Sequence record: KU935715.1
Direction: 5' to 3' (one strand)
Length of the DNA stretch: 64,000 nucleotides
Source of the DNA: Acinetobacter phage vB_AbaM_ME3
Part shown: positions 45,077 through 61,395 of the stretch, one piece after another
Layout of the letters: every line of letters starts with the position of its first letter
Position numbering within the stretch: the stretch's first letter is position 1
Notes under the pieces: generated by a model
Database searches by the model: none
What the model saw: only the letters and a program-made list of their open reading frames with translations
What the model was told of the DNA's origin: nothing
Program-made: the position numbers and the translations under genes

Positions 45077-46522
45077 TTACTCTTTAACTAATGCATAACG
45101 ATCTACTAATAGCGTTTCTTTCATAATAGCTTCAGGTGAAAACTCATCTAAAGTATTAGAACAAACTGCTTTTAATAGAGAAGGAGAAAAGCTAGATAAT
45201 AAACAAGCACCTGATTCATCATATTTAACAGGAAAGTTATTATTAGAAGGAGTGTTAAGAACCCAAAAGATTAATTTAGGACATTTTAATCCTGCTTCTT
45301 TAAACTTAACTTGAGCATCAACATATGCTGAGCTTTCACGAGAATTAAAATTAAACTGAGTGTCACTGAAGAAAACTAAATATTCAGGTAATTGATCTGA
45401 AGAAATATTATTAGAAACTACTAGATCTAATAGTAGTTTAAAGACACCTTCAACATTTGTACTATAACCAACTTGACTTTGAGCAATAAGATCATAACGC
45501 TCTTTTAAAGTTTTACAATCTTTGAGATCAACAAAAGAAGGATGATCTGCAAATGTAGTTACAAGGTTTTTAAATGGACCTTCAATACGTTCACTGATGT
45601 AAGCACCTAAAGTAATTGCAATATGTTTATATGTTGCATTACCTACAGCAGGAGCTTCCATTGAACCACTTAAATCAACTACAGGAAGAATCGATAAACC
45701 TTCTTTAATTAAATTAGGAAAGCTATTCCACTGAGCTTCTACAACAGGATTAGGTTCGAAATAAGGAGAATAACGAGACCCTAATATTGAATAAACTTCA
45801 GAAATTTCATGAAGAAATAATGTAGACGAATTTAAAGTTGCAGTTCCCTCACTCACTTTATTAATAAAATCATTAAAACGATCTGAGTCTTTAGACAAGA
45901 ATGTATTTTTATAACGATTAAAAGCTTTAGAAGGAACTGTACTATAATCTATTTCAGCGATACGATGCTCACACAATAAACGTTCAGTAACTTTAGCTCG
46001 TAAAGGGACAATTAACTGTCTTAATTCTTTAGGAGTGACCTTAAGATAAGAACGTAACATAGATGCAACATTGCCTTTCAAAGGTAACCACTTTGCAACT
46101 AATATCTGAGTTTCAGGATTTTTCAAATGTTCAGCTAATAGTCGAATAATCTTTTTCTTAATACGAAGATCAACATCACATTCTACTAAATTAAATAAAT
46201 CAGGATAATACCCTAACTCTACAATTTTAGATAAAAGATTAGTTTTTAAAAATACATCAATATCTATATGAGCTAAATGAATCATACAGAGATTAAATGA
46301 ATTACGAATACCTTTACCTTGTCTAATATCACGAGAATTCAAAAGATTACGAATTGCTAAATCTTTGTCTTCTAGATAAGCTTTTCGAAAATCTAAAATA
46401 GCTTCTTGAGAATAGTTAGGATCACCTAATTTAACAAAGAAATCTAAATTATGAGAAGCAGTACTAGAATAAGCTACTGCCCCATTAGTGGTTTGTGTTT
46501 TTAAAGCTGTTGCTGCAAACAT
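45077..46522 (-). CDS. vWA-domain protein, possibly a Ro60/TROVE-like RNA-binding protein
   Basis: C-terminal-half MIDAS-like motif VVDLSGSMEAP; 481 aa with a long N-terminal domain, matching the Ro60 TROVE+vWA layout. Confidence 0.4.
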   Translation of the reverse strand: MFAATALKTQTTNGAVAYSSTASHNLDFFVKLGDPNYSQEAILDFRKAYLEDKDLAIRNLLNSRDIRQGKGIRNSFNLCMIHLAHIDIDVFLKTNLLSKIVELGYYPDLFNLVECDVDLRIKKKIIRLLAEHLKNPETQILVAKWLPLKGNVASMLRSYLKVTPKELRQLIVPLRAKVTERLLCEHRIAEIDYSTVPSKAFNRYKNTFLSKDSDRFNDFINKVSEGTATLNSSTLFLHEISEVYSILGSRYSPYFEPNPVVEAQWNSFPNLIKEGLSILPVVDLSGSMEAPAVGNATYKHIAITLGAYISERIEGPFKNLVTTFADHPSFVDLKDCKTLKERYDLIAQSQVGYSTNVEGVFKLLLDLVVSNNISSDQLPEYLVFFSDTQFNFNSRESSAYVDAQVKFKEAGLKCPKLIFWVLNTPSNNNFPVKYDESGACLLSSFSPSLLKAVCSNTLDEFSPEAIMKETLLVDRYALVKE

Positions 46523-46996: not shown

Positions 46997-48097
46997 TTAG
47001 AGAGCATATGCTGATTGGTTTGTTAAAAAACTTTTATACATTGGTTGAATAAGGAATTTAAGTCCTTGATGAATAATTGTAATTTCACGTGTCATTGGAT
47101 TTTGACTAATTTCACTATTCATGTGAGTAATATATACATCAAATGCTTGATCACCTAATTCTTCATCAGTTGAGTATGGGTTCCATTCATTACGATGTTT
47201 ATTTAAAAACTCTAATAAACATGAAGAATTAGCTACAAAATCAGCAGGATCATATTCAGAATTAGTATTAAGATTAAACGCTCGAATATTAAATTCAATA
47301 GTGTCATTATTCAATTGAGTTTTAATATTAAGAATTTCAGTTAAACTTGCAATTGACTCTTCAGGATACTGATTCATTTCTTTAATTAATACAGATAACA
47401 TATCAATATTAAATTTAGAGAACTTTCCTACAAATTCCAATACTTCACTAGTACGTGATTGATCTTCTAAGTTATCTTTCATGTACTCTTTAAGTAGTTC
47501 AATATCTAATGATTTGAACTCAATATTAAAATAAACACGACCAGGACGATTGCTAAAGTACTCTAAATGGTGACCATATAAAGTTGTATTAGCAGTCATT
47601 AAGAATAAAGTATGTTGAGGCCATGTACCATCTAATAAGCTTAACATAGAATTACGAGGTTCAGCTTCCATGTATACTTTTTCAAATTCATCAATCACTA
47701 CAATTTTATCTTGAGTAATACTTTGAAGGAATTGATTAAATGTAGAACCAGCATAAGGTTGATCAACAATTAAGACAATTCCTTGATGAGATTCTACAAA
47801 GTTAATACAAATACGTTTAAGTAATAAGCTCTTACCACTTCCTTTTTCACCTACAAAGGCAGCAGATGTAGCTTTGTCTTGACGTTCAAAGTATGTATCT
47901 AAGATACGACCAGCCCAACGATCTGATTTTCCATATACTTTATGGTAAATAGTAAAAGGATTTGTAGGGCTTAAGAAGAATTGTTTAACTTGGTCATCCC
48001 ATTGAACAGAATAATAACCAGCTGGAATAACAGGTACAATAAACTTTGCTAGATTTTCAGCAACATAATAACCATTAGGTTTATTTAAATAAGACAT
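46997..48097 (-). CDS. P-loop NTPase (366 aa)
   Basis: Walker A GEKGSGKSLL; Walker B-like VVIDEFEK. Confidence 0.6.
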   Translation of the reverse strand: MSYLNKPNGYYVAENLAKFIVPVIPAGYYSVQWDDQVKQFFLSPTNPFTIYHKVYGKSDRWAGRILDTYFERQDKATSAAFVGEKGSGKSLLLKRICINFVESHQGIVLIVDQPYAGSTFNQFLQSITQDKIVVIDEFEKVYMEAEPRNSMLSLLDGTWPQHTLFLMTANTTLYGHHLEYFSNRPGRVYFNIEFKSLDIELLKEYMKDNLEDQSRTSEVLEFVGKFSKFNIDMLSVLIKEMNQYPEESIASLTEILNIKTQLNNDTIEFNIRAFNLNTNSEYDPADFVANSSCLLEFLNKHRNEWNPYSTDEELGDQAFDVYITHMNSEISQNPMTREITIIHQGLKFLIQPMYKSFLTNQSAYAL

Positions 48098-48597
48098 TAT
48101 AAAAGTCCTTGTCTGATTTCATTTCGAATTTGCATTAATACTTCACCAAGAAGATTACGACCATTCCATTGAGAAGGATCTGTAGCTCTTGGATCATCTT
48201 CTTCTAAACCAACGCCCCAAATCTTATCATTAGGATTACATTCAACTAAGGTTAGTTCTTTAGTTGCTAATAAGTAGTCACGATACTTAGGAATAGTATA
48301 TTTTTGACGATTAATTTCTAGCATATAGTTATAACGAACTTGTTCCCAAGATGCATCATTATAATTAGATACTTTACGACCGAGTTGCTTAGCTTGGATT
48401 GGCTGTAACTGAGTATTTTCTAAAAGCTTCATTGTAGCTTTATCATTAAAATGAAGAGCTTTAGCATACATAAAAGCATTTTCTGTATATAAAAATGTAA
48501 CACCTTTATATTCAAAACCAGCAAAAGCAAAATTACTAAATGGGCCTCTTAAAAAGAGTAAGTAATTATCTTTAATTGTACATTGAGGAATATTCAT
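48097..48597 (-). CDS. NADAR/YbiA (DUF1768) domain protein
   Basis: FLRGPFSNFAFAGFEYKGVTFLYTENAFMYAKA is typical of NADAR/RibX-like N-glycosidase/ADP-ribose-processing enzymes. Confidence 0.65.
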   Translation of the reverse strand: MNIPQCTIKDNYLLFLRGPFSNFAFAGFEYKGVTFLYTENAFMYAKALHFNDKATMKLLENTQLQPIQAKQLGRKVSNYNDASWEQVRYNYMLEINRQKYTIPKYRDYLLATKELTLVECNPNDKIWGVGLEEDDPRATDPSQWNGRNLLGEVLMQIRNEIRQGLL

Positions 48598-51406: not shown

Positions 51407-51740
51407 GATTTATTTCAATTACTTCATCTAAGTCACTTAAGTCATCAATTGAACTAATTATATAATCACCTGTAACTCCTCTAGCCATACATGCATTAGA
51501 GTTCAATTTATCTATAATGCTTCCGCATATAACTAAAGTATTATTTTGAAAAAGTTTAATTATACCTTTTGTATCTAATTGCATTCGTTTCCGAGGTATG
51601 GAATACAAAGAAAATTCATCTCGATCAAACCAGCAAGCATACATAATATTATGAGCTTTAGAATAGTTTATAAAGGTATCATAGAGGTCTTTAGTTATTT
51701 TTATAGATTTTGTATCTATAAATTTTTGTAATTTATTCAT
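51381..51740 (-). CDS. tandem-array family member
   Basis: MNKLQKFIDTKSIKI...VICGSIIDKL. Confidence 0.55.
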   Translation of the reverse strand: MNKLQKFIDTKSIKITKDLYDTFINYSKAHNIMYACWFDRDEFSLYSIPRKRMQLDTKGIIKLFQNNTLVICGSIIDKLNSNACMARGVTGDYIISSIDDLSDLDEVIEINLEDQYETI

Positions 51741-52071
51741 AATATATTTCTATTAATTCATCTTGAGATACTAATTCTTTATCAATTATTTCATACACAT
51801 TTTTAGATATTCTAGATAAACATACAGACTCATTTAATTGTTGAGCAACTGTACCACATATAAATAATAAAAAGTTATTTTCAAATCTTAAACATATATC
51901 ATTTACAGCTTGATAATTTGGAAGAGCTTTACTATACAGCACAATAGTACTACTACCTTGCTGTTGTATAACTAGTACCTTCTGCATAGCAAAATTATGA
52001 GAGAGATCAAGTGCTACTCTATGTGTTATGAATACACTTTTACGAATTTTAAATTTACTCAATTGCATCAT
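51733..52071 (-). CDS. tandem-array family member
   Basis: MMQLSKFKIRKSVFI...FICGTVAQQL...ELIEIYYE. Confidence 0.55.
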   Translation of the reverse strand: MMQLSKFKIRKSVFITHRVALDLSHNFAMQKVLVIQQQGSSTIVLYSKALPNYQAVNDICLRFENNFLLFICGTVAQQLNESVCLSRISKNVYEIIDKELVSQDELIEIYYE

Positions 52072-52375
52072 AACAGTCTATTTCTATAACTTCTTCAAAA
52101 GTACTATTAAGAAAAACATAAACCCCTGGTTCTTTTCTATATAAATATTTTCCTTCTTCTATATCTAAACTATTTAAATAGAAGCGGGTTTGATCTATAT
52201 AGAAAATTACATATCTATCTAAAGAAAATTTTTTTGGACGACGAGTTCCTAAATATAATCCTTCATCATTAGAATAAAAATAAAAATCTCTTGAATTAAA
52301 TTTAGTCAAAAATTGGTAAAAAGAATGTGTAATTAATAGGGTAGTTTTAATTTTAAAAGACTTAAGAAAAGCCAT
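52055..52375 (-). CDS. tandem-array family member
   Basis: MAFLKSFKIKTTLLI...EEVIEID. Confidence 0.55.
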   Translation of the reverse strand: MAFLKSFKIKTTLLITHSFYQFLTKFNSRDFYFYSNDEGLYLGTRRPKKFSLDRYVIFYIDQTRFYLNSLDIEEGKYLYRKEPGVYVFLNSTFEEVIEIDCYDAIE

Positions 52376-52685
52376 AAATTTCTATCTCCATAATTTCTTC
52401 GTCTACATTATGAAGAAATTGATAATCAGCAGCACCTAATCTATGTAAAATTTTTCCTTGAAGAATACTTTCAAAATGTTCGGGATTTAATAACATATTA
52501 GAAGTTCCAATTCTAAATCTAATATAATTTATTCTTGAAACAGGTCGAATCATTTGAAGTCGCATACCACTATCACGATTGTTAACAAAAGTTAAAGGAC
52601 TTAACTCTATATCATTTATAAATTTATATGTTGACTTCGATATACGTATTACAGAAATTGTTTTGAATTTATTAAGCTTCTTCAT
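52362..52685 (-). CDS. tandem-array family member (start trimmed to the internal MKKLNKFKT)
   Basis: Track ORF 52362..52772 carries a 29-aa out-of-family N-terminal extension that overlaps the upstream paralog by 100 nt; the internal Met gives a family-typical ~107 aa. Confidence 0.5.
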   Translation of the reverse strand: MKKLNKFKTISVIRISKSTYKFINDIELSPLTFVNNRDSGMRLQMIRPVSRINYIRFRIGTSNMLLNPEHFESILQGKILHRLGAADYQFLHNVDEEIMEIEIYGFS

Positions 52686-53013
52686 CAATGATTTCAAAAC
52701 TCCTAAAAGGTATATCAGTTTTAATAAACTTAGATACAATTCCATCCTTAACCAAAGCAGTACCTTCTTCAATACTATTTAAATGCCTTCTTGTTATATA
52801 GCATTTAATATTATCAATATAAAAATGTACATAAGGTCCTAAATCATAATGCCTTGCTAGATACATAACCCAACGATCAGCATCCATATGATAATATGTA
52901 AGGACAATCTCAGTTTCTTCATATCCTTCAAGATGATGTTTTAGTTCAGTAATCAAACTATCTGTTATGTTAATAACTTTAGAAAAAGTTTTAAACTTAT
53001 TAAATTTTTTCAT
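52672..53013 (-). CDS. tandem-array family member
   Basis: MKKFNKFKTFSKVINI... Confidence 0.55.
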   Translation of the reverse strand: MKKFNKFKTFSKVINITDSLITELKHHLEGYEETEIVLTYYHMDADRWVMYLARHYDLGPYVHFYIDNIKCYITRRHLNSIEEGTALVKDGIVSKFIKTDIPFRSFEIIDEEA

Positions 53014-54232: not shown

Positions 54233-54646
54233 TTATTTTTTATTAACTAATTGTGAAATTGTTTTAGCATCGTATTGAGATACATGGTAATTAGCTTTAA
54301 ACCAGTTCATAACAAATGCAGTTTTATTACCTTTATCTTCAGACCAATTTCCACACACTCTTTCAACAATTTCAATTGTTTTTTCAGGAGATAATGGTTG
54401 AGGTAATAAACTATTTAAAATTTCTAATTCTTCACGTGCAACTTCATTTAAAGGAGAGACACTTAATACTTGTAAAGCTGAATCACGAAACTTTTTTAAA
54501 GTATCTAAAGTAATAGTATTTCTATCTGCTTTTACTTTCTTTTCGGCTTGTTGAACTTCACCTAAAATAGTTGTAAACAGATTTGTATGAACTTTATTCT
54601 TATTTTTACGAGCTTCTAATGATTTTTCAGTAATTGTTTGAAACAT
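54233..54646 (-). CDS. GatB/YqeY-domain protein
   Basis: EELEILNSLLPQPLSPEKTIEIV and the C-terminal FVMNWFKANY...AKTISQLV match the YqeY pattern. Confidence 0.6.
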   Translation of the reverse strand: MFQTITEKSLEARKNKNKVHTNLFTTILGEVQQAEKKVKADRNTITLDTLKKFRDSALQVLSVSPLNEVAREELEILNSLLPQPLSPEKTIEIVERVCGNWSEDKGNKTAFVMNWFKANYHVSQYDAKTISQLVNKK

Positions 54647-54696
54647 TTTATATCCAATAAAAAAGCCTCTACTATAATTTAGTAGAGGCTTTTATT

Positions 54697-55320
54697 TTAA
54701 GTTAAAGGAAGTATAACTGATCTTACAACATCATCTGATCCACGTACAGAGATCTTTAAATTGAAATCATCTATAACACTTAAAGATATATTAGAAGGTA
54801 ATCTAGCAGAATCTACTTTAGTACTCAAACCACTTGTTATTGTGGAATTTAAAGTAGATTCAAGAGTAGATACCTTAGAATCAACATATGGCTTAATAGA
54901 ATGAGGATCTTCTGAAGTTGTATGTTCTTCAATCTTTCTATCTAGTTCCATATCAACATAGTCGACATTATTATTAGAGATTTTGTTTAACATCTCATTT
55001 TGAATATCAACCATATTAACAGTAATAGAGTGGGGATCTAACATAGTAATAGGTAATTGACTAAGAGAGATCATCCCATTAACTAAATCTGCTTTAGTGT
55101 TATTAAGATTTTGAATAGCAGGATTGAATGTATCTCTCACTGCTTGTTCTCTCAAATCTATATACTGTTTTTGACTAATAGATAATGGTTTATCTATATC
55201 ACTAGTATTATCTACTTTATCGAGATCTAAAATTTGAGGAACATCAAGTAGTACCCAATTCTTTAATTTCTGAGTAGTTAGATGATATTTACCACGTCCG
55301 AGCAATAGGTATTTGTTCAA
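54697..55320 (-). CDS. hypothetical Ser/Thr/Asn-rich protein
   Basis: ORF track. Confidence 0.5.
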   Translation of the reverse strand: MNKYLLLGRGKYHLTTQKLKNWVLLDVPQILDLDKVDNTSDIDKPLSISQKQYIDLREQAVRDTFNPAIQNLNNTKADLVNGMISLSQLPITMLDPHSITVNMVDIQNEMLNKISNNNVDYVDMELDRKIEEHTTSEDPHSIKPYVDSKVSTLESTLNSTITSGLSTKVDSARLPSNISLSVIDDFNLKISVRGSDDVVRSVILPLT

Positions 55321-55399
55321 TACCTACTAACTCATGAGGAAATTCTGGTACTTGACTTATTGTTTGCCCAAGATAAGCATCAGCCATTATAATTCTTCC

Positions 55400-56845
55400 T
55401 TATGTTCTTTGTTGAAAACCAAAACCAGTATTTACTAATTCTGTGCTTTCATTTTCACGTCTACCTGCTAATAAAGCAAATAGATTAGCTAAAGTAATAC
55501 GATCTGGAAGACTTTCTTCTAAGTCTAAACGATCACAACGATTTAGTACTTTAACTGCTTGTTCTTTATGCAATGCATCTACATGAATAGCTTTATAGCA
55601 ACGGCCTTCACGTAATAGAGCTTCATCAACATCTGCTAAATTATTTAAGTTAGAAGTAAAGATAACTTTCTTTTCTTTCTTAGCTGTTAATCCATCAGTG
55701 ATGTTAAGAAGTTTTTTCATCACTTCATTACCATCTTTCTGACGACTATTAATATAAGTATCAGCATCTTCAATAATTAAGAATCGTTCATCACTATCAT
55801 AGAAATGAGAGAATAACGAATCCATATTAGCAATATCTTTATTGTATGTGATTAAACAAGATTCATTAGCATAATGTAAAATTTGCTTTAATAAACTTGT
55901 TTTACCAGTACCTGGAGCTCCATACAATAATAACACAGCTGAATCAGATTCTAAATAGCCATTAATAAAATCTTGAAGATTAATATCATTTAAGAAAGGA
56001 TAAGCTTCTTCAATAAAAGTCTTATTACGAGGAATTGGAATAGTTTTAATATTCAAATCACCTGACTGTGTAATACGATCAACCCATTGAACTTCAACTG
56101 TCTTAGGTTTTAATTCTAATAAAGGGTGAAGTTCTTCAGCTAATGTAGTAGGCATGATTGCATTATTAATAAAGTAATCAGCAGGAACCTTATGAGTATG
56201 TTCAATAGATATAAAACCACCATCCATTAAAATCTCATAATGCTTTTGAAGCTTTTCACCATAATGAGTAAATACTGTTAAAGCTTTTGATTTAGCAAAT
56301 TCTAAAATAGCTTCAAATGATGCTTTTGTAATTTCAGTATATGTATAAGTAGATAAAGGAATTCCTTTATCTAAAGAATTTTGTTGAATATTAACTAGGT
56401 ACTGCATACCGAATGAAGCAGTAACAATACTAGGACTTAAATTATTTTGAGAAGTCATTGGAGGGCTCATAGGAATATTATATACAGGTACTTTAGTATA
56501 AGCTGGATTTACATCTGGTGAATGATAATAGTTAGGACCACTTACTGCGTAGACATGCTTGCCTGTATAAGATACTTGAAGATCATATGAATCTCTGGGG
56601 TTAGCATTGTACTGTGGACCAACCCCTGTAAGAGTATTATAAATAGACTTATTAAAACTTGAAGCAGTAATTTGTCTTAAAAAAGTTCTATAATACATAG
56701 ATACGTAACTAATACGATCATATGAATTTAACTCTCCAAACTCATTATTAACAGTTGGAGAAACACCTTCAACAATTTTAAAAGCGTTTCTAAATATAGA
56801 CATTATTTGAAATGGTCTATGTCTTCGAAGAGTTACTCTTGCCAT
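55400..56845 (-). CDS. classic AAA-family ATPase with a ~300-aa N-terminal domain of unknown function (BCS1-like layout)
   Basis: Walker A LLYGAPGTGKTS, Walker B FLIIEDAD, SRH FTSNLNNLADVDEALLREGRCYKAIHV. Confidence 0.75.
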   Translation of the reverse strand: MARVTLRRHRPFQIMSIFRNAFKIVEGVSPTVNNEFGELNSYDRISYVSMYYRTFLRQITASSFNKSIYNTLTGVGPQYNANPRDSYDLQVSYTGKHVYAVSGPNYYHSPDVNPAYTKVPVYNIPMSPPMTSQNNLSPSIVTASFGMQYLVNIQQNSLDKGIPLSTYTYTEITKASFEAILEFAKSKALTVFTHYGEKLQKHYEILMDGGFISIEHTHKVPADYFINNAIMPTTLAEELHPLLELKPKTVEVQWVDRITQSGDLNIKTIPIPRNKTFIEEAYPFLNDINLQDFINGYLESDSAVLLLYGAPGTGKTSLLKQILHYANESCLITYNKDIANMDSLFSHFYDSDERFLIIEDADTYINSRQKDGNEVMKKLLNITDGLTAKKEKKVIFTSNLNNLADVDEALLREGRCYKAIHVDALHKEQAVKVLNRCDRLDLEESLPDRITLANLFALLAGRRENESTELVNTGFGFQQRT

Positions 56846-56851
56846 ATTATA

Positions 56852-57040
56852 CTATTCACTTTTAAATTGCTTAATCATGTATGTGTTATGTTCATTCAAG
56901 AAATCATTCATAATTTGTAGTGTTTCTACATCTTGAGTTAACTTTTGATTTTCTTTAGTTAACTCGTCACATTTTTGATTAAGAACATAAATCGCTGCTA
57001 ATAATAAAAGAATAACAGAGATAACAAGACTAACCAGCAT
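56852..57040 (-). CDS. single-pass membrane peptide with a coiled-coil tail
   Basis: MLVSLVISVILLLLAAIYVL TM. Confidence 0.5.
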   Translation of the reverse strand: MLVSLVISVILLLLAAIYVLNQKCDELTKENQKLTQDVETLQIMNDFLNEHNTYMIKQFKSE

Positions 57041-57041
57041 A

Positions 57042-57731
57042 TTAATTCTCTTCTACAGAAGGCGCTACTGTAGCGCCTTTAAGAGCAGCTAAACGTTCTT
57101 GAGCTGATTTTTGAGTAGTATTGTATTTCTTAACTACTTCTTGACCAACTGGTTTAGTCTTCTCTTTTACACGTTTAATACCCTTATAACGAGAAGACAT
57201 TTCATCAGCATCGCGACGAACTTGTTCAATTTGGGCACGTAATCCATTAGGAATACTATCAGAGTGAAGTTCAATTAATGCTTTAGCAGCATCATAACGT
57301 ACTTCAGCTAATGTAAGCGTTTGCTGTGCTTGAACAATGTCTTCATCAATTGTTTTAAGCTCTTCTTCTAGATCTTTAGAATGTTCTACAAAAAGATCTA
57401 AAGTAGATTGTAATACTTCTAGTTCTCTTTCAGCAGCATCTAATTCACTTGCAATTATTTCTACATCTGAAGTATTACCTTCAGCATCAGCTTGTAATAA
57501 AGCTGAATTTAAAGCTTCAATTTGTTTTTGAGCTTCTACTACTTTACCTTCATATAAAGCCGCTTTACCTTCTGTAGTTTCAAAAGTTTTAACTACAGCA
57601 CAACGAGCTTCATTATATTGCTTTAAAATACGATGACTACGATTTTTAATTGAATCTAATTCATCTAATGTACGATCTAATTTAGATCCAAAAATTAAGA
57701 AGAATTTTTTGAGTAACTTAAAAAAGTTCAT
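57042..57731 (-). CDS. PspA/IM30/Vipp1-like (ESCRT-III superfamily) coiled-coil protein
   Basis: 229 aa; N-terminal amphipathic MNFFKLLKKFFLIFGSKL then long heptad coiled coils, matching PspA size and pattern. Confidence 0.45.
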   Translation of the reverse strand: MNFFKLLKKFFLIFGSKLDRTLDELDSIKNRSHRILKQYNEARCAVVKTFETTEGKAALYEGKVVEAQKQIEALNSALLQADAEGNTSDVEIIASELDAAERELEVLQSTLDLFVEHSKDLEEELKTIDEDIVQAQQTLTLAEVRYDAAKALIELHSDSIPNGLRAQIEQVRRDADEMSSRYKGIKRVKEKTKPVGQEVVKKYNTTQKSAQERLAALKGATVAPSVEEN

Positions 57732-57733
57732 GA

Positions 57734-58144
57734 TTATTCCTTTGTATATCTACGAATTAGTTGTTCACGTCTTGAACCAGTAGTTGACGTATTTAAGAGA
57801 GAAGCTAAAGTTTCAGGATTAAATATCACAGCTGTCTTTTCTCCTCCCATTATCTTATTACGATTAATAGTATCGAATAGAACATGAACTGCTTTAGGAC
57901 AAGTTTTTGGATAATTACTCTTTTGTTTTTCAAGCTTATTATACAACTTAGTAATAGTTGGAAATTCATAAGGATTGAAACCTAACAAACGAGTAACTGT
58001 ATCTGTATATGATTCAATTGTCTCTTCTACTGGTGCAGGAATTCTTTTTAATTTTTTATAACGTTTAAATAAAAATACAATTACAAAAAATAGACATTGT
58101 GCTAGAAGAAGTCCTAGACAAAATGCAGCAATTTTCTCACCCAT
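57734..58144 (-). CDS. N-terminally membrane-anchored protein
   Basis: TM AAFCLGLLLAQCLFFVIVFLF. Confidence 0.5.
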   Translation of the reverse strand: MGEKIAAFCLGLLLAQCLFFVIVFLFKRYKKLKRIPAPVEETIESYTDTVTRLLGFNPYEFPTITKLYNKLEKQKSNYPKTCPKAVHVLFDTINRNKIMGGEKTAVIFNPETLASLLNTSTTGSRREQLIRRYTKE

Positions 58145-58676
58145 GTAAATTTACCTTTTTATATTTCTTAATTGAAAAAGAGACCCCAGAAGAAGAGACT
58201 TTATCTTCTTGTTCTACTAACTGGAATTCAGAAGTATCTAAGTTATGATTATAGAACTTATTACCATTTTCAATTTCAATACCTACTACTGTAGCTATTA
58301 CTTCATCTGGCGGGTAAGACTCATATACTTTTTCACCACCTACTATAAGAATCTCTTCATTAGGATTAGCTTTAATATAATGATCCAATATTGGTTTAGT
58401 CCAATAAGAAATATTATTAGAATCTAATCCATAATCATCAATTAATTGTTGGGCTTTAATTGGATTTTGAGTAATAACTACAATATTACGCCCAGGAAGA
58501 ACTTCATGACTTTTTGCATAACCCACTACACTACGAAAAGTATTACTTCCCATATAAATAGTTTTTCCTAAAGTTAATTCTTTAAAGAGTTTTAAGTCTT
58601 CAGGTAAATGCCAAGGAAGACCATTGTCAATTCCAATTACATCATTTAAAGATTTAGCTACAATATGTTTAATCAT
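58137..58676 (-). CDS. dihydrofolate reductase
   Basis: IGIDNGLPWHLPEDLKLFKELTLGKTIYMGSNTF plus the C-terminal ILIVGGEKVY (GG motif). Confidence 0.8.
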   Translation of the reverse strand: MIKHIVAKSLNDVIGIDNGLPWHLPEDLKLFKELTLGKTIYMGSNTFRSVVGYAKSHEVLPGRNIVVITQNPIKAQQLIDDYGLDSNNISYWTKPILDHYIKANPNEEILIVGGEKVYESYPPDEVIATVVGIEIENGNKFYNHNLDTSEFQLVEQEDKVSSSGVSFSIKKYKKVNLHG

Positions 58677-58678
58677 GG

Positions 58679-59017
58679 TTAATCCTCTAGAAGATCTCTA
58701 AAAATTTGTTCTCTTGTTCGTCCTGTCGTTAAATTAGGAACACGTCCATATTCAGAAAAATCAGAAGGTATTACCCTTGAATTCCTAAGTCTTGTACGAC
58801 TTTCTTCTCGGACATAATACTCATTAAATAGACGAGCATCAGTAGGAGGTAGACAACTAACAGAGCCTATTTCAGTCATAGTTGCCAGTAGTTCTTGAAT
58901 TTCTTTTGCCCATAAAGGATCATCTCTAACAATTTTCTTAAATTTAAGAAATGTTCCTTTTTTCTTCGATGGAGGATAGAAAAAAGGAAACCCTATAGTT
59001 GTAATATCATCCATCAT
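58679..59017 (-). CDS. hypothetical protein
   Basis: ORF track. Confidence 0.5.
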   Translation of the reverse strand: MMDDITTIGFPFFYPPSKKKGTFLKFKKIVRDDPLWAKEIQELLATMTEIGSVSCLPPTDARLFNEYYVREESRTRLRNSRVIPSDFSEYGRVPNLTTGRTREQIFRDLLED

Positions 59018-59417
59018 TTAGATAAGTCTCCAAGCAAGGATTAATACCTTCAGTAGTACCTGTAATTAACGTAGGTTGTCTTATAGGATAAGATGCTGAA
59101 GTTAATGTAAACATTGGAGGACTATAAGCTGTATTTAATTCAGCTCTTTGTGGTCTATACCTATCAGATAACATATATCCATAAAGTTGATCAAGTAAAA
59201 GATCATTTATTAATTTGGAAGTTTCATTCCAAGAACCTTCATACACACCATCTAGCCAACATTTAGAATCTTCTTCTATTAAAGGATTAGTATGAACAGT
59301 AGTCTTAAATTTATTAAGTTTTTGACCTTTATCTTTTTGTTCTTCAGGCTTGGTATATTTATAATATTTAATTTGAATAGGAGTTTCTAGTCTCCAATTT
59401 GAATAATCTCTTCTCAT
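59007..59417 (-). CDS. hypothetical protein
   Basis: ORF track. Confidence 0.5.
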   Translation of the reverse strand: MRRDYSNWRLETPIQIKYYKYTKPEEQKDKGQKLNKFKTTVHTNPLIEEDSKCWLDGVYEGSWNETSKLINDLLLDQLYGYMLSDRYRPQRAELNTAYSPPMFTLTSASYPIRQPTLITGTTEGINPCLETYLNDG

Positions 59418-59425
59418 GAATTCCT

Positions 59426-59638
59426 TTAATATGTAATTGTTTTATGTTTTATATTACCACATTTTTTACATTGTTTAATAAAGGAAACACCATAAGGAAT
59501 AGATTCATCTTTTTCGACTAAACTAATTTCTTTAACAACAACGTATTCATGTTTACAACTTAAAAATCTTGAGTACACTATAAACATACATAACGAGAAA
59601 AAGAAGCCAATAAATAATCCAATTATTTCATTAATCAT
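59426..59638 (-). CDS. small membrane protein with C-terminal Zn ribbon
   Basis: TM plus CKHEY...CKKCGN. Confidence 0.45.
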   Translation of the reverse strand: MINEIIGLFIGFFFSLCMFIVYSRFLSCKHEYVVVKEISLVEKDESIPYGVSFIKQCKKCGNIKHKTITY

Positions 59639-60801: not shown

Positions 60802-61395
60802 TTAACGACGAGAGGAACGACTACTACTTCGAGTACTATATGACTTAGTTTTTGATAAGGTTGTATAAGACTTTTTAGTAGTAATATTAATAGGTTTCCT
60901 ACTAACTGTTTGAGGAGCTTTTTTAAGACTCACAGTCGAGGGAATAGAGCTAATAGTGGAAGGTTTATTAGCGGGCAAAGAAGTTTTAGATGGACTATCA
61001 GTAGAAGTAGTCTTTACTGGTTGACTATTGTAATTGTTAACTACAACAGTCTTTTTAACCACAGTTTGTTTAGGTTGTCTAACATAATTCTTACGATCAT
61101 AATCATTAGAATTATTAGCAATCATATGACCAGCTACAGCACCTGCAATACCAGAAAGTAAAACATCACTACCAGTATAACCACTCTGAGAAGCTACAGC
61201 TTGAGCTTGCTGAGGGTTTTGTTGGTATTGGGTAGTAAGAGCAACCCATTCATCTAACGTGCCTGTATATCCATCTGATTGAGCTTGCTTGTACGTAGTA
61301 ACAATTTTACTACTTTCATAACTCTCTGGAGCTTTTGTACAACCAACAAAAGACATAGATATAGCAATTACAGAACAAAGAAAAAACTTTTTCAT
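60802..61395 (-). CDS. lipoprotein with Ser/Thr/Lys-rich C-terminal tail
   Basis: Lipobox SFVGC; low-complexity STS-rich tail. Confidence 0.55.
   Translation of the reverse strand: MKKFFLCSVIAISMSFVGCTKAPESYESSKIVTTYKQAQSDGYTGTLDEWVALTTQYQQNPQQAQAVASQSGYTGSDVLLSGIAGAVAGHMIANNSNDYDRKNYVRQPKQTVVKKTVVVNNYNSQPVKTTSTDSPSKTSLPANKPSTISSIPSTVSLKKAPQTVSRKPINITTKKSYTTLSKTKSYSTRSSSRSSRR

Follow-up and report, generated by a model that had tools for sequence, protein, structure and literature searches.

A candidate PspA/IM30-superfamily protein and its flanking membrane proteins in Acinetobacter phage vB_AbaM_ME3

PspA and Vipp1 (also known as IM30) are bacterial homologs of the ESCRT-III proteins that protect and remodel membranes; PspA owes its name to its induction by phage infection, and PspA-type proteins have membrane-protein partners in systems such as PspB/C-PspA and LiaI-LiaH. 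Here we analyze a 64,000-nucleotide stretch (the "window") of the DNA of Acinetobacter phage vB_AbaM_ME3 (sequence record KU935715.1), in which a 229 amino acid (aa) protein is supported by family-profile evidence as a remote PspA/IM30 homolog of the ESCRT-III superfamily. Its gene lies between genes for a 136 aa transmembrane (TM) protein and a 62 aa TM peptide, beyond which a gene encodes a 481 aa AAA ATPase whose best structural matches are YjoB and Bcs1, the latter a mitochondrial translocase of folded proteins. In Bacillus subtilis PspA is recruited by the membrane proteins YdjG/H and the SPFH protein YdjI (PMC8581546), PspA-Band-7 associations have been catalogued by Ravi et al. (PMC11237479), and YjoB is a chamber-forming, substrate-specific soluble chaperone (PMC9565160).

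Phage-encoded PspA is nearly undocumented. A literature search found no study of it beyond one line of an annotation table, which lists ORF54 of the Ralstonia jumbo phage RsoM2USA (PMC8504454), and of 50,697 phage records just 2, both of them unannotated metagenomic "Bacteriophage sp." entries, were matched by Vipp1 as a representative of canonical PspA. A preliminary description of the window had read the 229 aa protein as PspA/IM30-like and had proposed that it forms, with the 62 aa peptide and the ATPase, a membrane-remodelling module comparable to ESCRT-III and Vps4. The three open reading frames (ORFs) on which that proposal was built were found exactly where it had placed them, all on the minus strand, and the PspA-like character of the first is borne out below; the module itself is not.

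Relationship of the 229 aa protein to PspA and Vipp1

Searched as a single sequence, the 229 aa protein has no PspA_IM30 match in Pfam at E<=1 and none in NCBIfam, and it falls below the Pfam gathering threshold for PspA_IM30 (PF04012) of 33.9 bits. Its matches in Pfam, NCBIfam and PADLOC are to generic coiled-coil families only (RasGAP_C, SMC, JetC and LmuB), and PADLOC and NCBIfam yield nothing more than generic SMC, JetC or P-loop matches. The preliminary description had named coiled-coil or SMC-like hits as a sign that the protein might be something else, and for the single sequence they are indeed all that is seen, but analysis with family profiles overturns this picture. The protein belongs to PHROG 26980 (E=7e-93), whose function is given as unknown in PHROGs, and its family is small (10 clusters within a collection of 5.8 billion proteins). 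An exhaustive search of 1.84 billion representatives with the family profile A1 returned 13 proteins, 12 of which span 219-249 aa while the other is a 122 aa fragment. One of the 13, P0142 (library-wide E=5.9e-5), is a full-length member of Pfam PspA_IM30 (98 bits, with residues 3-221 on model positions 1-218 of 220) and has further matches to TIGR02977 PspA and to Vipp1 chains of solved structure. P0137, a less distant member of the family (E=1e-13 to the family profile), matches PspA_IM30 in register at E=5e-7 and 30 bits, just below the 33.9-bit cut-off, and matches LiaH at 4.5e-4. The profile of PHROG 26980, which was built independently, is matched by P0142 (5e-8) and P0157 (5e-10), and these profile matches show PHROG 26980 to be a PspA-like family.

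Profile-profile comparison was made between alignment A3, which is the window family with P0142 and P0137 taken out, and alignment A4, which combines the P0142 clade with two Vipp1 sequences (these were taken from PDB alignments, since a search for P0142 homologs gave close relatives only). Comparison of the two with hhalign gave 97.6% and a score of 83 over 214 columns, with positions 1-224 aligned against 1-222. In the reciprocal direction, a profile of the P0142 clade matches the 229 aa protein at E=6.4e-9, and jackhmmer started from Synechocystis Vipp1 converges on exactly the P0142 clade and the entire window family.

These comparisons bear directly on a simpler explanation, namely that the 229 aa protein is merely a generic coiled coil (structural, scaffolding or SMC-like) whose similarity to PspA is compositional, as its single-sequence matches might lead one to think. 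The proteins returned by the exhaustive search are, however, ~220-250 aa long and aligned end to end, with no long coiled-coil proteins among them. Reversal of the A4 profile, which preserves composition and heptad periodicity, cuts the hhalign score from 83 to 21 (1.8%), and 20 column shuffles gave scores of 9-18; all controls are below 2%. The reciprocal PspA profile has no off-family match among 1,724 sequences (~1,700 ORFs, other coiled-coil ORFs included), and N- and C-terminal motifs (below) are common to the window protein and PspA at equivalent positions. We therefore regard the generic coiled coil as an improbable explanation.

The link of the window family to Vipp1 is transitive, because Vipp1 alone fails to reach the family: its hhalign value against the family is 9% and a direct search gave no matches. 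Profiles A1 and A3 found coiled-coil noise only among PDB sequences, and fold searches with the model of the 229 aa protein did not discriminate between candidate folds. Neither the 229 aa protein nor P0142 had a tblastn match in the 50,697 phage records, megablast of the region against the same records gave no match (the DNA polymerases nearest to that of the phage, from Xanthomonas phages X1 and BUDD, are just 35% identical), and a back-translated pattern search of IMG/VR for the PspA-like protein gave no confirmed relative.

The AlphaFold2 (AF2) model of the 229 aa protein is almost wholly helical (H3-83, H87-154, H162-191, H195-202 and H210-221), with predicted local distance difference test (pLDDT) values of 80-90 over residues 20-180, and this predicted layout of a long hairpin followed by shorter helices fits PspA. 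Residues 2-19 form the N-terminal amphipathic helix that had been pointed out in the preliminary description; it is cationic (charge +3) and has a hydrophobic moment of 0.49, a value reached in 187 of 5000 shuffles. The corresponding figures for Vipp1 helix alpha0 are +1 and 0.54-0.57, and the window protein's helix differs from that of Vipp1 in being more hydrophobic and more cationic. The helix is kept across the PspA-like family and is predicted to be a membrane-binding helix of the alpha0 type, although the window protein lacks the "EDP" turn found after alpha0 in P0142 and canonical PspA. Near the C-terminus lies the motif [DE]-[RE]-L-A-A-L-K, which reads ERLAALK in the window protein (SAQERLAALKGA, residues 210-221), recurs in its relatives (SVEDRLKALQNK) and matches Vipp1 GVEDELAALKAS at residues 204-215.

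Thus, the window protein resembles the PspA/IM30 (Vipp1)/LiaH proteins of PF04012 in its length (~220-230 aa), amphipathic helix, hairpin, short C-terminal helices, [DE]-x-L-A-A-L-K motif and collinear full-length profile alignment, and is unlike the canonical members in sharing just ~12-20% identity with them, in going undetected by Pfam and NCBIfam models and in being encoded by a large phage. Because profile searches, hhalign with its controls, the reciprocal search, length, helices and motifs agree, homology to PspA is supported, and from its sequence the 229 aa protein is best placed in the PspA/IM30 superfamily, as a divergent, phage-encoded member that lies under the curated family thresholds and has a new partner protein. 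The P0142 clade of genuine PspA_IM30 proteins is encoded in phage DNA as well. Its gene on the 185-kb contig ERZ22160080 NODE_1 (locus L013:8001-8669) sits in a T4-like phage context, in the company of RNA ligase, endonuclease VII, HNH, NUMOD3 and NADAR genes and with a Band_7 gene 8 kb upstream, and one protein of the clade carries the Joint Genome Institute name "phage shock protein A". Judged from these sequences, at least two separate PspA-like clades are shown to be present in large phage genomes.

Membrane proteins on either side of the PspA-like gene

The genes that surround the PspA-like gene are listed here in the order of the run:

58137..58676, minus strand: dihydrofolate reductase (DHFR; PF00186, E=1.5e-29)
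57734..58144, minus strand: bitopic membrane protein with LGFNPY motif, 136 aa (TM segment; homologs upstream of PspA-like genes)
57042..57731, minus strand: candidate divergent PspA/IM30-family protein, 229 aa (PHROG 26980, family profiles, hhalign, AF2 model)
56852..57040, minus strand: single-pass membrane peptide, 62 aa (N-terminal TM segment and short leucine-zipper-like helix)
55400..56845, minus strand: Bcs1/YjoB-like classical AAA ATPase by predicted structure, 481 aa (PF00004, PHROG 14322, motifs, model, Foldseek)

The window is AT-rich (~30% GC), and its minus strand carries every ORF that reaches 150 aa, an arrangement like that of a large phage. From DHFR to the AAA gene the gaps between neighbours are -8 to +6 nucleotides (nt); those around the 62 aa ORF, which begins 1 nt past the stop codon of the PspA-like gene, are 1-6 nt. 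There is no terminator-like site inside the run, and the first one past it is a hairpin at 54661..54693. This hairpin, which has a strong 14-bp stem, is followed by T-rich sequence and lies between a 207 aa ORF and a YqeY gene, was detected on the plus strand and is the sole terminator-like site across 54500-59500; the outcome of the promoter and terminator scan was no different from shuffled expectation. The PspA-like, 62 aa and AAA genes are probably co-transcribed in the window. Throughout the window's clade the DHFR gene directly precedes the gene pair for the TM partner and the PspA-like protein, and we use it as a context marker and not as a proposed functional part.

The 136 aa protein, which had gone unmentioned in the preliminary description, has an N-terminal TM segment at about residues 5-27 that is followed by the basic sequence KRYKKLKR and then by a domain bearing an invariant L-G-x-x-P-Y motif (LGFNPY here). 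Since the basic residues stand directly after the TM segment, this domain is probably cytoplasmic. No Pfam, PHROG, NCBIfam or PADLOC family was matched by the protein. A homolog lies directly upstream of the PspA-like gene in all of the related loci L001-L011, and the block DHFR, ~130 aa TM protein, PspA-like protein is invariant in these loci, including relatives at 52-57% identity. Locus L016 also has the homolog directly upstream (E=7e-23), though its PspA-like protein is only 27% identical, and L018 has a marginally related protein (E=1e-3, GINP motif) encoded on the downstream side of the PspA-like gene. Since no locus of the clade lacks it beside the PspA-like gene, and L016 has it there too at 27% identity, we take the 136 aa protein to be a likely partner of the PspA-like protein.

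On the other side, the 62 aa product is, as had been described, a single-pass membrane peptide with its TM segment at residues 1-25. A peptide of 41-136 aa with an N-terminal TM segment follows the PspA-like gene in L001, L002, L005, L007 and L008 (in L007 it is an uncalled 46 aa ORF), but these peptides are just 13-25% identical among loci, so that position is conserved and sequence is not. The conserved partners of the PspA-like gene are these two flanking membrane proteins, not the ATPase.

Small membrane-protein genes likewise directly flank the PspA-type gene in B. subtilis pspA-ydjGHI, in LiaI-LiaH and in PspB/C-PspA, and the architecture of the 136 aa protein (N-terminal TM segment plus cytoplasmic tail) is analogous to that of known PspA membrane partners. 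Neither the 136 aa nor the 62 aa protein belongs by sequence to PspB, PspC, LiaI or YdjG/H, with which they share no detectable similarity, and unlike the pspA-ydjGHI, psp and lia systems the 64-kb window has no Band_7 gene and no PspF- or LiaRS-type regulator. The likeness to pspA-ydjGHI is closer in the remote loci L017 and L018, whose PspA-like proteins are at 22-27% identity: there the PspA-like gene is followed by a gene for a 2-TM protein with the GINP motif and then by one for a membrane-anchored Band_7/SPFH protein (PF01145, E~1e-16; 452+ aa in L017 and 524 aa in L018, in the stretches L017:867-2711 and L018:1906-4204). By sequence and gene position, these comparisons identify the LGFNPY protein as a putative, previously unnamed membrane partner with a link to SPFH proteins in remote relatives.

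A TM protein, a PspA-like protein and a TM peptide in a row might instead serve lysis control or host interference, either as a set of the holin/antiholin/spanin type or with the PspA-like protein as a decoy that titrates host PspF, PspB/C or the cyclase of a cyclic-oligonucleotide-based anti-phage signalling system (CBASS). The 62 aa peptide has weak matches to the Rz-like spanin phrog_739 (E=2e-5), along with other generic TM-plus-coiled-coil families, and the 136 aa protein has a faint match to a holin family (E=0.16). A typical Rz-like i-spanin has ~130-150 aa, however, and the peptide is far smaller; its sequence is not conserved, the only same-strand ORFs of 40 aa or more that overlap or adjoin it, as an o-spanin gene would, are the PspA-like and AAA genes themselves, and no endolysin was found nearby. 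As for a decoy, host PspA keeps a CBASS cyclase inactive by serving as the target of its conjugation (PMC11153139), and by analogy a decoy role toward host PspA partners is conceivable, but no host PspA is close enough in identity to the window protein to point to mimicry of specific interfaces. Taken together, we think that lysis control or interference of this kind is quite unlikely to be the function of the set.

The neighbouring AAA ATPase

As the preliminary description had it, the 481 aa protein carries a classic AAA module in its C-terminal half: Walker A (GAPGTGKT) is at residues 309-316, Walker B (FLIIEDAD) at 355-362 and the second region of homology (SRH) with its arginine fingers (ALLREGR) at 409-415, and the Pfam match is to PF00004 at E=1.5e-13. 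The protein is placed in PHROG 14322, and its family profile matches Cdc48, AFG2, Bcs1 and Rpt proteins, which are of the classical clade, with Bcs1 matched as one contiguous stretch. In the AF2 model residues 1-138 are of low confidence and unstructured (they have no predicted helices and are poorly conserved), residues 140-275 form a confident alpha/beta domain and residues 290-460 the AAA module. When this model was compared with PDB structures by Foldseek, the top 15 matches were all yeast or mouse Bcs1 or B. subtilis YjoB (E=1.6e-13 to 6e-11), in alignments of ~354-402 columns that cover nearly the whole of targets 334-419 residues long; p97 and Rpt matches begin at 9e-10, and the best Bcs1/YjoB match is ~4 orders of magnitude better.

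The preliminary description had wondered whether the N-terminal part might be MIT-like or BCS1_N-like. The former suggestion fails, since the AF2 model contains no MIT-like helical bundle; the latter holds in part, in that residues 140-275 resemble the Bcs1 middle domain in the model, an assignment that is made from predicted structure only because there is no BCS1_N match in Pfam at the sequence level. The protein has no TM anchor or hydrophobic segment across its 481 aa, and the structural match, the lack of an MIT bundle and the lack of an anchor together indicate that it is a soluble ATPase of the predicted Bcs1/YjoB type. It would thus share with Bcs1 and YjoB the match of residues 140-460 to their full-length structures (E=1e-13 to 6e-11), a classical AAA module with SRH and, as judged from its sequence, the absence of a canonical aromatic pore loop between Walker A and Walker B. 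It is unlike Bcs1, and resembles the soluble YjoB, in having no N-terminal TM anchor, and is unlike both in its extra unstructured and poorly conserved 138-residue N-terminus.

Is the adjacent ATPase then a Vps4-like partner that disassembles or remodels a membrane-assembled PspA-like polymer? An ESCRT-III-superfamily gene beside a classical-clade AAA gene does recall archaeal CdvB/CdvC and eukaryotic Snf7/Vps4, and several observations are in keeping with such a machine. The genes are adjacent and co-directional in the window and in close relatives, with the 62 aa ORF between them and no terminator, and the three lineages with enough contig (the window, L005 and a 233-kb contig) all have the AAA gene in the same region of the genome. 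The ERLAALK motif has what we take to be a resemblance to the RLxxLK core of the MIM1-type MIT-interacting motif, and linkage to AAA+ ATPases is known for some bacterial PspA genes (PMC11237479), although the ATPases there are different ones and the link seen here is not conserved. Against this, the ATPase has no MIT domain to bind ERLAALK, a motif that is in any case a general feature of PspA/Vipp1 alpha5, and by best structural match it is Bcs1/YjoB-like and not of the Vps4/meiotic clade; a BCS1-like identity of the ATPase was one of the outcomes that the preliminary description had named as speaking against the module.

The adjacency is also evolutionarily unstable. It is confined to the clade of close relatives at ~80-90% identity; for example L007, whose PspA-like protein is 81% identical, has the gene order of the window with the AAA gene adjacent. 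Conservation of the pair across related phages, which the preliminary description had suggested looking for, was not found, since relatives at 52-57% identity have their AAA gene beside a NADAR gene, at a distance of 4-10 kb: it lies nine genes (4 kb) downstream of the PspA-like block in L005 and ~9.7 kb downstream in the 233-kb contig, and it adjoins NADAR in both. No AAA gene turned up in the DNA retrieved for L002-L004, L008-L011 and L016-L018, and the remote PspA-like loci have Band_7 and no AAA gene. NADAR genes were located at 48097-48597 (minus strand) in the window, at L005:14012-14500 and at L012:7434-7940, and are directly downstream of AAA in the distant relatives. The window, by contrast, has ~7 kb between its NADAR and AAA genes, and we infer that a rearrangement created the PspA-AAA adjacency in the window's sub-clade.

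Relatives of the ATPase are, moreover, far more widespread than the PspA-like family. The AAA family comprises at least 277 clusters, many on contigs of 230-380 kb, against 10 for the PspA-like family, and relatives of the AAA domain occur in 190 sequenced phages (e.g., phiKZ gp208, Rak2-like phages and Campylobacter phages), none of which has a detectable PspA-like gene. On this evidence an ESCRT-III/Vps4-like machine seems to us unlikely, and the ATPase is probably a neighbour in the window's clade and not a dedicated partner. It is still conceivable that a Bcs1/YjoB-like ATPase has been recruited in this sub-clade to disassemble, recycle or load the PspA-like polymer, because the genes are tightly packed here and AAA co-occurs in every lineage that can be judged, but we give this only a slight chance. 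If it were true, it would be a virus-encoded, non-Vps4 route to ATP-driven remodelling of a bacterial-type ESCRT-III protein.

Genomic surroundings and proposed role

Several of the relatives carry a Ter-type stress cluster (two TerD, TerC/DUF475, vWA-TerF-like, PRTase_2 and StiP/PELOTA_1 genes) just upstream of the DHFR/TM/PspA-like block (L001:1237-5692, L002:1210-6170, L005:1-5916 and L008:182-4429), and a NAPRTase gene is often found just downstream of the block. The window itself (1-64000) has no Ter, NAPRTase or Band_7 genes. The occurrence of membrane- or metal-stress genes beside the PspA-like gene may be meaningful. A PspA-thioredoxin dyad (PMC11237479) was considered as context and rejected, since the thioredoxin gene lies at a distance of four genes and is not conserved in position.

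Other genes of the window are noted briefly. The ORF at 45077-46522 (minus strand) encodes a Ro/TROVE-like RNA-binding protein (phrog_850, E=1e-123); its length of 481 aa equals that of the AAA protein by coincidence, and it was rejected as an AAA paralog because the two are unrelated. Relatives also encode Hen1, a Tpt1-like PTS_2-RNA gene, NADAR and YqeY, which together with the Ro/TROVE-like ORF suggests an RNA-repair gene set. Four tandem small ORFs of 106-136 aa at 51733-53013 (minus strand) have in common an N-terminal motif (KFNKFKT, LNKFKT or LSKFKI) and appear to be paralogs of one another, and LNKFKT is also present inside a 136 aa ORF at 59007-59417 (minus strand). A 70 aa protein at 59426-59638 (minus strand) has a TM segment and a zinc ribbon (Baculo_LEF5_C match, 1.2e-5), and a 197 aa protein at 60802-61395 (minus strand) combines a lipoprotein-type signal (…SFVGC) with a long tail rich in Ser and Thr.

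The explanation that we favour, and think reasonably probable, is that the phage carries a divergent PspA/IM30/Vipp1 protein that acts with the 136 aa bitopic membrane protein, usually joined by a small TM peptide, to stabilise membranes, the AAA ATPase being separate. The cytoplasmic domain of the 136 aa protein would bring the PspA-like protein to the inner membrane or nucleate it there, and the latter would bind through its cationic amphipathic N-terminal helix and polymerise through its helical hairpin. Such a polymer could stabilise or reseal the host membrane and so keep up the proton-motive force during phage replication or a long infection cycle. The threats countered in this way might be membrane proteins of the phage itself, holins that act too early or host defences that target membranes, or the effect might be a delay of lysis. 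The ATPase would be a chamber chaperone or translocase that was brought beside the dyad by rearrangement and most likely has a substrate of its own.

The attractive analogy with ESCRT-III and Vps4 is thus corrected as unsupported, and the locus offers what would be a concrete and testable case of a virus that carries its own membrane-stress machinery.

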